Shown: positions 1,632 through 58,500, numbered from the whole stretch's first letter. The stretch is 63,294 nucleotides of DNA, filler included, from Octopus bimaculoides (GCF_001194135.2; 5 parts of 5 records of this genome joined end to end with filler, not necessarily neighbours in it), one strand, 5' to 3'. Program-made: numbers and translations. Notes: a model not told the origin generated them from the letters alone.

Positions 1632-1790
1632 GTTCAAATTTATAGAAAAACAAAGACGAAGACAGGTGTAGGAAGTCGGGAAAAATAGAAATGTTTTTTT
1701 TATGTTTCGAGCCTACGCTCTGCGACAGAAAGGAATCAGAGAAAGTAAATATTGAGAGAATGAAAAACACGTGTTGAAGTCAGTGGGCCA
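1632..1790 (-). mobile_element. Short interspersed repeat (possible Penelope pLTR-derived) with hammerhead-like motif, copy 1
   Basis: Reverse complement shares CCTTTCTGT-GAGCGTAGGCTCGAAACAT and CACCTGTCTTCGTC with 2393-2590. Confidence 0.6.
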
Positions 1791-2392
1791 ACATGGCGAA
1801 TGATATACGTATATATATATTTATGTACGCGTGTAGTTATGGAATTATGTATGCATGCATGTATGTATGTATGTATGCAATTATGTATGTATATAATTAT
1901 GCATGCATATACATGCGTGGATACATACGTATGTATATATGTTTGTACGCATGTATGTATATATGTATATAATTATGTATGTAATGTTCGTTTTTCTCTT
2001 TAATTTAGATTTAATTTTAAACGGTTATCAGCATGGTCGCAAAGTTAAAAAAGTAAAGTTATAAAGTAAAGGATATACACACACATATATATAAGTGTGT
2101 GTGTATATATATATATATATATATATATATAATTATATATATAGCGGTTGCCTGTTCATGACATTTTTCACACTCCAACTGCCATCATTACAGCTAGTAA
2201 GTAATCCCAAGCCCCCAGAAACAGCTGTCGGAACTAAAAATCAATGCTCTCAACCCTTAATTTTCTGTATCTTTTGTACTACATGTGTTTTGAAAATACA
2301 TGTGTAATGCAAATACATAAACATTTACAATACATGAGTATTGATCTTCTGAATATTTTGGGGGGTTGTTTTTGCACTCTAAATATATATAT

Positions 2393-2590
2393 TTATCACT
2401 ATCCATGATAGATCGCTAACCACTACACACATTTTTTTTCTCTCCTTGTTTGTTTCTGTGTTCCTTTCTGTGGAAGAGCGTAGGCTCGAAACATTAAAGA
2501 CGTTTTCAATTCCCGAGTATTATACTAATACATCTATTTGTTTTCTACATCACCTGTCTTCGTCTGTTGTTTTTTTGTGAATTCTCCCTA
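2393..2590 (+). mobile_element. Short interspersed repeat (possible Penelope pLTR-derived) with hammerhead-like motif, copy 2
   Basis: Homologous to 1632-1790 in inverted orientation; GAGCGTAGGCTCGAAAC is identical in both. Confidence 0.6.
2464..2499 (+). ncRNA. Hammerhead-like motif, non-canonical core (A6 replaced by U, extra A), probably decayed
   Basis: Stem I CTTT/AAAG; core CTGTGGAA; stem II GAGC-gtag-GCTC; GAAA; stem III AC-A-T (one CpG-type change from palindromic ACGT). Confidence 0.35.
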
Positions 2591-4578
2591 TTATAGTCAA
2601 ATATATCCCTACATATATTTACATGTATATATGTATACTTATATGTATATTTTATATATATATATATTATGTATCAAATCCAAGCATGTTTATCTGTTTA
2701 TTTGCAACATTATCTCTCTCTAACTATATATATATATATATATATATATATATATATATATATATATATATATATATNNNNNNNNNNNNNNNNNNNNNNN
2801 NNNNNNNNNNNNNNNNNNNNNNNNNNNNNNNNNNNNNNNNNNNNNNNNNNNNNNNNNNNNNNNNNNNNNNNNNNNNNNNNNNNNNTATATATATATATGT
2901 GTGTGTGTGTGTGTGTGTGTGTGTGTGTGTGTGTGTGTGTGTGTGTGTGTGTGTGTGTGTACATGCTACATATATGCACATATTTAATGATGTTCTTCAA
3001 TAGTCAACAAGTCTAAAGTATTCAATATATTATAAAAATTAGAGTTTATATACACGAAAATATCGACCTTTTACCAACTGGTATATTTCTAGACCTGTTA
3101 CACTCATCTTCAGAGCTCACAGCGTGATTTCTCTAAATGAGCGAAGATACACTTGAAACTTTTGGGCCAGTGGAAGGTCGATATGACCTCTGAAGATGAT
3201 GTAGAAAGAAACTTGAAACACGTCTAGAAATGCATCGTCAGTATATACATATAAATATATACGCGCACATACCTATTCACAAACGTACACGCACGCACAC
3301 GCGGGCGCGTATATACATAAATTCACACGTGCACTCGCATACTGGTGAATGTGCTGTCCATCGACGCATATATTATTGCTTGTATATGTTAATATATACG
3401 TGTGTTTGTACGTAGAAGGCTATACAGAACACCAATGTCTCTCTTCATATATGTATATATATATATATCTGTTTATCACTCTCTCTCTCCTCATCTGTAT
3501 ATATATATATATATATATATATATATATATATATATATATATATATATATATATATNNNNNNNNNNNNNNNNNNNNNNNNNNNNNNNNNNNNNNNNNNNN
3601 NNNNNNNNNNNNNNNNNNNNNNNNNNNNNNNNNNNNNNNNNNNNNNNTATATATATATATATATATATATATATATATATATATATATATATACATATAC
3701 ATATATACACACACGCATATATATATATATGTATGTATGCTTACGAATTACATGCCTGTTTCTGTTTGTATTAATGCATATATATGTATATGAATATAAT
3801 TATCACGATGATTTTATCGGAAAGGTTACAGTGACATTTCTTACCATATACATACATACTAATATATATATATATATATATATAGATAGATAGATAGATA
3901 GATAGATAGATAGATAGATACATATATATGTGCATATACATTCATATATACACATACATACATACATACATACATACATACATACATACATAGAATATAC
4001 ACATGCAACATGCCATCGCAGTTTAAATGCACCAATATATTCATGCACCAAATTATTCATGCTGTTTACAACTTACCTCCAGTCAAGATACGCCGAACCT
4101 ATTTCGTATGATATCAATATCGATTCCAGAGTATCGAGTACTAATCAATTATGAGCACATTTAATAACATGCATGTTGTAACTGACCATCTCGTTATATA
4201 TATAGATCTTTTCATATATTCGTCTATTAATCAATACGTATTATCTAAAGGAATATTTAATGTATTGCTGTATAATTACATAGTGTTGCTTGACCCCCCT
4301 CAATCGAATAAATCTTTGATCAAAGGGGTTAACCTGATCTGGTCGAGTAGACCTATAGTCAAAGGCGTTATAATCGTGGCCAGGCCAAATCTTCTGTGTT
4401 TACATCTATCATCATAATTTGCATATATTTATTTATCTGTTTGTTGAGGTTGTAGCGTTTGTGAATTGTCATGGATTCGGTGGCTATTTCTAGTATGCCG
4501 ATCGACTGGGTAAAGGCCCTTTCATTGTCTCTGACAATATAAAGCGTGGTGAGTGTATATATGTGTGTATGTATGTGT

Positions 4579-56479: not shown

Positions 56480-57110
56480 TTCATTTGCACATTACCGAGA
56501 TGGCAGTGAAGTGCAGACAACTGGCAGGATGGATACTAAGGTCCTTCAAGACAATTGACCAATAAGTTGTGTTGACCCTGTGGTGGATCTTTGACCTCAC
56601 CCACCTGGACTACTGTTCCCAGTTATGTTCACCACATAGTGCCAAGCTAACATCTGACCTTGAAGCAGTCCAACGCCTCTACGCTAAAAAGATTGAAACC
56701 AGCTGAGCTACAGGGAAAGCCTGAAACACTATGACTTTACTCAGTGGAACAAAGGCGTGAAAGATATGTAATAATCTACATATGAAAAACTCTAGAAGGG
56801 CTAGTATCAAAATTTGGCATTGAATGTTATACAAATGCCAGAACTGGACGCTATTGTATTGTCTGAATTCAGGACCAGGTACTGCAATACCCTAGAGTTC
56901 AAAGACCCACAGCTTTTCAATGCCCTGTCACAAAAATTAAGAAATCTCCATAATTTGGACGTGAATGCCTTCAAAAAGAACTAGACATCCTCCTCTCCAC
57001 AATACCGGGTGAACCAATGGCACGTCATGAGGTACAGACGAGGGCAGCGAAATCAAACTCCCACATACACCAAATGAGCCAACAGCTGCGACAGAGGCCC
57101 ATACAGGAAT
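56480..57110 (+). mobile_element. CR1/L2-group LINE RT C-terminal fragment
   Basis: Blocks KCRQLAGWILRSFKT, HLDYCSQL, LEAVQR, RRERY, PQLFNALSQKLRNL and SNS, with frameshifts. Confidence 0.85.
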
Positions 57111-58049
57111 GGTGATATGAAACCCCCAAGCAAGACGAAATTTAAAAAATCACAGTGGTGCTCCAGTATGACCACAGCTGCATGGCTGAAGGAAATAAAA
57201 GAATATATATATATATGTGTATGTATATATGCGTATATATATATATATNNNNNNNNNNNNNNNNNNNNNNNNNNNNNNNNNNNNNNNNNNNNNNNNNNNN
57301 NNNNNNNNNNNNNNNNNNNNNNNNNNNNNNNNNNNNNNNNNNNNNNNNNNNNNNNNNNNNNNNNNNNNNNNNNNNNNNNNNNNNNNNNNNNNNNNNNNNN
57401 NNNNNNNNNNNNNNNNNNNNNNNNNNNNNNNNNNNNNNNNNNNNNNNNNNNNNNNNNNNNNNNNNNNNNNNNNNNNNNNNNNNNNNNNNNNNNNNNNNNN
57501 NNNNNNNNNNNNNNNNNNNNNNNNNNNNNNNNNNNNNNNNNNNNNNNNNNNNNNNNNNNNNNNNNNNNNNNNNNNNNNNNNNNNNNNNNNNNNNNNNNNN
57601 NNNNNNNNNNNNNNNNNNNNNNNNNNNNNNNNNNNNNNNNNNNNNNNNNNNNNNNNNNNNNNNNNNNNNNNNNNNNNNNNNNNNNNNNNNNNNNNNNNNN
57701 NNNNNNNNNNNNNNNNNNNNNNNNNNNNNNNNNNNNNNNNNNNNNNNNNNNNNNNNNNNNNNNNNNNNNNNNNNNNNNNNNNNNNNNNNNNNNNNNNNNN
57801 NNNNNNNNNNNNNNNNNNNNNNNNNNNNNNNNNNNNNNNNNNNNNNNNNNNNNNNNNNNNNNNNNNNNNNNNNNNNNNNNNNNNNNNNNNNNNNNNNNNN
57901 NNNNNNNNNNNNNNNNNNNNNNNNNNNNNNNNNNNNNNNNNNNNNNNNNNNNNNNNNNNNNNNNNNNNNNNNNNNNNNNNNNNNNNNNNNNNNNNNNNNN
58001 NNNNNNNNNNNNNNNNNNNNNNNNNNATATATATATATATATAAACATA

Positions 58050-58500
58050 TATAAACAATTGCAGTATGGAAGGTGTTTATAAGCCATTTAAGAAACACAC
58101 AAAAACCGTTAGATTCACTTCAACATTTAAATTTAATTTGCCAAAATATTTTTGTCGCTTTGAGACCGTGACCTGTTCACTGACAAAATTCTGTGCAACA
58201 CAGAATGTACTTCAGGAACCAATACTGAAAAATATTGTGTGTGTGTGTGTGTGTTGTGTAAATGTGTGTGTCGTGTGTGTGTGTGTGTTAAAATGAAATG
58301 TGAGTCTAAACATTTTTAGATAAACATAAAGTGTTACATTTTTATATTTCGTTTGTAAGAGTCTTGAAGTGAACTCTGTATTGAAACAGATTTTGGTGTG
58401 TCTCGGCTGGATCATTATACCAATAATAAACACATACGCTGGTTCTGTTTCACTTCTTTATCATATATTTGTCAATTTGCTAACTATTTAACTCAATAAA
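58050..58500 (-). mobile_element. Interspersed repeat carrying a hammerhead-like motif (possible PLE pLTR)
   Basis: Non-microsatellite block containing the 58137-58187 motif; repeat status and class are inferred, no second copy in the window. Confidence 0.35.
58137..58187 (-). ncRNA. Hammerhead-like motif with G3-C8 core; G12 replaced by A (probably an inactive copy)
   Basis: Stem I TTTGTCA/TGGCAAA; core GTGAACA plus an extra G; stem II GTCAC/GCGAC; AAAA in place of GAAA; palindromic stem III AATATT; U17. Confidence 0.5.

Follow-up and report, generated by a model that had tools for sequence, protein, structure and literature searches.

Do repeats of the octopus genome carry hammerhead ribozymes whose catalytic cores escape searches for the canonical sequence? 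The question is raised by three motifs, here termed A, B and C, in a 63,294-nt stretch of Octopus bimaculoides DNA (GCF_001194135.2; five records joined, filler included; hereafter the window), which is animal-type DNA rich in repeats and contains 6,112 N. An initial annotation had placed them at 18351 (A), 58187 (B), and 2464 and 1732 (two copies of C). Stem I does begin at each of these positions, and the cores, which start at 18357(+), 58180(-), 2468(+) and 1728(-), had been read correctly. Our analysis suggests that A, B and C are probably hammerhead-shaped motifs from terminal repeats of three different Penelope-like element (PLE) families, with a G3-C8 pair as the norm in family B. The hammerhead topology and the state of family B were observed, and we infer the link of the three motifs to PLEs.

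A penalty descriptor was designed after the published consensus of PLE hammerheads, allowing at most two departures. Exactly three matches were obtained in the window, at 18357(+) with no departure and at 2468(+) and 58180(-) with two departures each, compared with a mean of 0.2 matches (maximum 2) at two departures in 30 block dinucleotide shuffles, none of which yielded a match without departure. In a stricter scan motif A was the sole match, and a comparable match appeared in 0 of 40 shuffles. It is therefore very unlikely that the motifs are chance look-alikes within unrelated short interspersed nuclear elements (SINEs) or miniature inverted-repeat transposable elements (MITEs), given the faultless match of A and the fact that both departures of B vanish in the majority of its family, as described below, which is unexpected by chance. 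The points in favour of chance are that single shuffles reach two matches at the two-departure level, that the isolated window copies of B and C have no advantage in folding over shuffled sequences (z -0.1 to -0.35) and that the perfect 15-bp inverted repeat closing A might represent the end of a MITE. In dimer cofolds, which were not used as evidence, energies lay between -3 and -6 kcal/mol for every motif, with pairing via the stem III palindrome in A only.

The proposal that the motifs share one topology, a GAAA stretch and a palindromic stem III was borne out in part. In A, in the majority of family B and in the plus-strand copy of C, stems I and II meet in a three-way junction of type I, and the C copy at 1728 fails the descriptor. 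G12-A13-A14-A15.1 was found in A and C and in 75-95% of family B reads or depth, and is missing from the window copy of B, where position 12 is A (58153). The palindromic stem III is present in A and B and lost from both window copies of C. An extra base between positions 9 and 10.1, together with G10.1-C11.1, occurs in B and C, not in A, which has a G-U pair and no extra base. Two of the motifs carry the alternative Watson-Crick swaps at positions 3 and 8 that had been suggested: U3-A8, a published core, in A and G3-C8, outside the published set, in B. Motif C, in which the C3-G8 pair is kept and the oddity is U6, does not belong to the swaps or covariants at 3-8.

These features resemble those of the minimal hammerheads of PLEs described by Cervera & de la Pena 2014 (PMC4209133; this and the other papers cited by accession or preprint number are quoted from excerpts), with which the topology, the short palindromic stem III and an occurrence mostly as solitary dispersed copies are shared. 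In that work U3-A8 is described for PLE minimal hammerheads of S. mansoni, with ~1,300 matches, and an additional base ahead of stem II, the G10.1-C11.1 pair and the palindrome are given as emergent traits. B and C are alike in having the extra base and G10.1-C11.1; B shows all three PLE hammerhead traits of the paper that lie outside the descriptor, and its U17 is common among the PLE examples. The claim that the motifs are hammerheads of the PLE kind was supported; B also has PLE-like inverted joints (see below). Unlike the present motifs, 0 of the 56 representatives in Fig S3 of the excerpted paper have G3 or U6, and none is from a cephalopod. U3-A8 covariation has further been reported in bacteria and phage-rich data by Perreault et al. 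2011 (PMC3088659), whose excerpts name A6C as a position 6 variant of low activity and do not include G3-C8 or U6 among the natural variants. Elsewhere G3-C8 is the state of engineered C3G/G8C mutants, in which it partly restores cleavage (PMC11167929; PMC8495972), whereas in B it occurs naturally, in most reads of an abundant repeat. A 2026 repeat annotation of O. vulgaris gives PLEs as 6.83%, with ribozymes unmentioned in its excerpts (PMC13282606).

The family state of B was read from public sequencing runs. The B stretch was found in runs of three organisms, and four runs were used, two of RNA from one organism and two of DNA contigs from the two others, in which 1,357 and 1,134 RNA reads and 13,712 and 10,449 contigs, figures that are not copy numbers, were placed on it; a further run, a small-share insect metagenome (X20), was left out. 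The repeat carrying B is thus a very abundant family. Among the RNA reads, 600 of 798 and 528 of 637 have G12, which also accounts for 95% and 89% of the contig depth. The stem II pair, broken in the window copy by an A.C mismatch at 58169, is restored in 71-89%, and a wobble in stem I becomes a Watson-Crick pair in 40-57%. None of the variants listed (40 of 95) falls in the core at 58174-58180, and in the tallies of all four runs the C>G change stays below 4%, so that canonical C3 is rare (<4%) in family B. The majority of reads combine G3-C8, G12, an intact stem II, the extra base before it and G10.1-C11.1, and with the majority letters the predicted minimum free energy structure is the hammerhead junction (-13.8 vs -7.6 kcal/mol). 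G3-C8 is therefore a family trait and not the decay of a single copy, as a check of the family consensus was meant to decide. In the window, the copies of both B and C are predicted to be dead, leaving A as the only intact copy.

Joints between B copies point in the same direction as the hammerhead traits. Among those listed (the best 15 of 55), 14 of 15 connect opposite strands, and 13 run from 58185-58198 to inner points that differ between joints; they may be read as head-to-head inverted truncated copies, and inverted 5'-truncated copies are typical of PLEs according to a figure legend (Fig 2) of PMC8557442. At the 5' end of the window copy itself, 58188-58206 holds an 8-bp inverted duplication, perhaps a miniature inverted truncation. 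A single head-to-tail join, from 58188 to 58067 (~128 bp, depth 1588), was seen in one DNA run (X8). As for the RNA, 43 places show A>G and 50 show T>C, compared with 9 each in the DNA contigs, which are those of other organisms; at 58110, for example, the change is found in 22-31% of RNA and 0.2% of DNA. This suggests heavy adenosine-to-inosine editing on both strands, and the present-day RNA is probably passive read-through in host transcripts, edited by ADAR.

The two copies of motif C lie inverted and head-to-head and are 75% alike. Within the motif 33 of 37 positions are identical, compared with 86 of 134 in the flanks (p=0.002, for a window chosen post hoc in an alignment of two sequences). 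Nearby lie two decayed relics in head-to-head orientation, whose canonical C3-G8 cores, at 3113(-) and 3190(+), show that such cores are present in the window too. Some 250 bp upstream of motif C, at ~2185-2232(+), there is a hammerhead 3' half, GAAA and palindromic stem III, with a decayed 5' core, and 16260-16300(+) holds a possible decayed U3-A8 core with GAAA and a near-palindromic tail and no clear stem II.

Several findings weigh against a PLE origin of the motifs or against a working ribozyme in family B. No PLE reverse transcriptase or GIY-YIG endonuclease was found by Pfam in the 148 of 382 unmasked stop-free open reading frames (ORFs) searched, so that the relics of both that had been reported for the window could not be confirmed, and no PLE ORF is tied to families A, B or C. 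Scanned locally with the Rfam hammerhead families, A, B and the plus-strand copy of C gave no match at E up to 10; such motifs are missed by Rfam and, as had been foreseen, by searches for the canonical core. For families A and C, translations across the motifs, used as barcodes for paralogous copies, recovered nothing. Reads were placed on B at a likeness of at least 80%, at which more distant sister families fall outside, and canonical G8 is ruled out for run X24 only, each of the other three runs having two G>C sites outside the variants listed. The expected covariation of stems was not seen in family B: the variants listed include no compensatory double change, and the changes in the stems are one-sided and mostly of the CpG type, one of them, at 58156 (5-15%), breaking a pair. 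On the strand of its hammerhead, the fixed end of B is found ~10-20 nt upstream of the motif, unlike the fixed 3' end of the Anolis PLE PAc, which lies downstream (PMC11167929). Coverage of B RNA is about equal on both strands, and no pile-up of read ends, and hence no sign of cleavage, was detected in the two RNA runs. For an active PLE hammerhead, no reads ending at the site are reported in vivo either (PMC11167929), and the junction of a circular RNA would restore the motif and would hence be invisible in the stretch searched.

Given these observations, it is possible, if short of probable, that G3-C8 and U6 arose in hammerheads already inactive or dispensable, which were then amplified passively, the motifs being derived from PLEs and not ribozymes. 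Consistent with such frozen relics, PLE insertion in vitro is unaffected by hammerhead mutants (PMC11167929), Naiads thrive without canonical hammerheads (PMC8557442) and the RNA of B is free of read-end pile-ups; for motif C, changes at A6 are known to lower activity (PMC3088659). Against them, a double transversion that preserves the pair and leaves the other core bases intact in the majority would be unlikely without selection in a founder, and the C motif is more conserved than its flanks. C3G/G8C partly restores cleavage in the Poseidon PLE hammerhead of Anolis, which needs protein (PMC11167929). With cleavage of the PLE hammerhead thus partial in the swapped state, dependent on protein and dispensable for insertion, slow activity and inert relics are both possible. 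A more far-reaching proposal, which we consider less likely than not, is that B is a natural active G3-C8 hammerhead in a very high-copy Penelope-derived repeat of at least three related species, whose ~128-bp tandems are cut as dimers to give tiny circular RNAs, and that together with the U6 family it represents large ribozyme families invisible to canonical-core searches.

Motif A is intact, with a 6-bp stem I, the core UUGACAA, a 4-bp stem II, GAAA, a palindromic stem III and C17. It caps an interrupted 142-nt rod that folds far better than shuffles (z -6.77, 0/200 shuffles); the opposite strand folds about equally well (z -6.64), so that stability assigns no strand. The surrounding 317 nt (z -7.2, 0/100 shuffles), likely the whole insertion, have the size of a non-LTR (long terminal repeat) retrozyme or of a unit of pseudo-LTRs (pLTRs). 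The near-perfect helices argue that A is a young copy, and one of its two changes at 3-8 could be CpG decay. This unit leads to another possible, though somewhat doubtful, reading, namely that A is a non-LTR retrozyme, a paired monomer of ~300 nt making circular RNA, and not a minimal pLTR hammerhead. Its helix I of 6 bp, helix II of 4 bp, lack of an extra base and short palindromic helix III form the canonical metazoan type I layout, as in retrozymes (PMC4209133), the highly paired unit has no coding capacity and falls within the 170-400 nt of non-LTR retrozymes (PMC7229834), and retrozymes derive from pLTRs (bioRxiv 10.64898/2026.07.22.740005). Unlike non-LTR retrozymes, A has a U3-A8 core, is present as a single copy in the window with no tandem array seen, and has a GC content of 49%, compared with the <45% quoted (PMC7229834). 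Derivation of A from a PLE agrees with U3-A8 being a variant shared with PLE minimal hammerheads and with a tail matching the one given for the PLE hammerhead of Adineta vaga (1) (PMC4209133, Fig S3). The coordinates of all motifs are collected in Table 1.

Table 1 Hammerhead-shaped motifs and the repeats around them in the window.
Feature	Position	Strand	Remarks
Motif A, type I hammerhead, U3-A8	18351..18392	+	core 18357-18363, GAAA 18377-18380, C17 at 18386
Rod-like stem I extension around motif A	18300..18441	+	closed by a perfect 15-bp inverted repeat
Putative whole insertion with motif A	18262..18578	+	~317 bp, 49% GC, microsatellites on either side; boundaries inferred
Motif B, minimal type I hammerhead, G3-C8	58137..58187	-	core 58180-58174, extra G 58173, U17 at 58144
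Repeat copy carrying motif B	58050..58196	-	fixed family end just past 58196; family runs on left of 58053 (depth profile, loose ends, joints)
Motif C copy 1	2464..2499	+	C3-G8 with U6; stem II preceded by an additional A; intact GAAA; palindrome of stem III lost
Motif C copy 2	1697..1732	-	U6 and C9; stem I broken; faces copy 1 head-to-head as an inverted copy
Decayed head-to-head pair, canonical C3-G8 cores	3060..3231	.	cores 3113(-), 3190(+)

Further searches yielded little of the same kind. The Rfam scan of the whole window gave no hammerhead among the matches listed (150 of 255), and pattern scans of viral contigs for each of the three motifs returned 0 matches. A metagenome scan gave one match (L001) and a genome scan two (L002 and, in Rhizobium, L003); L001 and L002 were rejected as unrelated chance matches in prokaryote-like DNA. 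No tRNA gene was found in the window. Above the curated cut-off, the only Pfam match in the ORFs searched was a relic of a Mariner transposase helix-turn-helix domain (HTH_48, 17736-17939(-), E 1.4e-16), and a regular-expression search for PLE protein motifs gave nothing convincing. A GIY-YIG relic suspected at 34963-35223(-) was rejected, having no homologues and adjoining, as judged by eye, a Helitron-like end; at ~35236-35262(-) a hairpin followed by CTAG resembles, again by eye, a Helitron 3' end. Two fragments without Pfam match, at 7632-7871(+) and 52428-52960(-), look by eye like R4/Dong-type non-LTR proteins, and a third, at 58724-58921(-), likewise by eye, like the C-terminus of a CR1/L2-type long interspersed nuclear element. 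The window also contains two abundant SINE-like families, one of ~170 bp (5431-5600 and more than 15 further places) and one of ~420 bp (43320-43740 and relatives), near-perfect inverted repeats at 48141-48492 (91% over 353 bp) and 48616-48716 (89% over 101 bp), the latter with weak miRNA-family matches under the Rfam cut-offs, and a tandem array at 14884-15466 (175-bp period, 3.4 copies). The largest survey of PLE hammerhead variants is reportedly that of Lunse et al. 2017. It lay outside the literature covered, in which neither a natural hammerhead with G3-C8 or U6 nor a description of one from a cephalopod was found, and it may contain them. The suggestion of a large, under-described set of covariant-core ribozymes retains the G3-C8 of B, with that limit; it is weakened by the published U3-A8 of PLEs (PMC4209133) and by the canonical relics beside motif C.

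On the preferred reading of A, B and C as motifs of PLE terminal repeats, a founder element of family B probably fixed the Watson-Crick swap at 3-8, with the pair kept, and the enzymes of a PLE, its reverse transcriptase and its endonuclease, would then have copied the repeat, most likely in trans. Cleavage of the B RNA would be slow and fall after position 17 (58144/58143), and it would take place only in a dimer held by the palindromic stem III or with the help of protein. The U3-A8 motif A contributes only a new host lineage. Since PLE insertion in vitro does not depend on cleavage, selection for cleavage may or may not act on PLE hammerheads, a question on which the many natural copies of B that have or lack G12 could bear. 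If B is active, a swap otherwise known as a rescue mutation made in the laboratory would be in natural use at high copy number, and censuses based on CUGAnGA or UUGAnAA would undercount the hammerheads of animal genomes.

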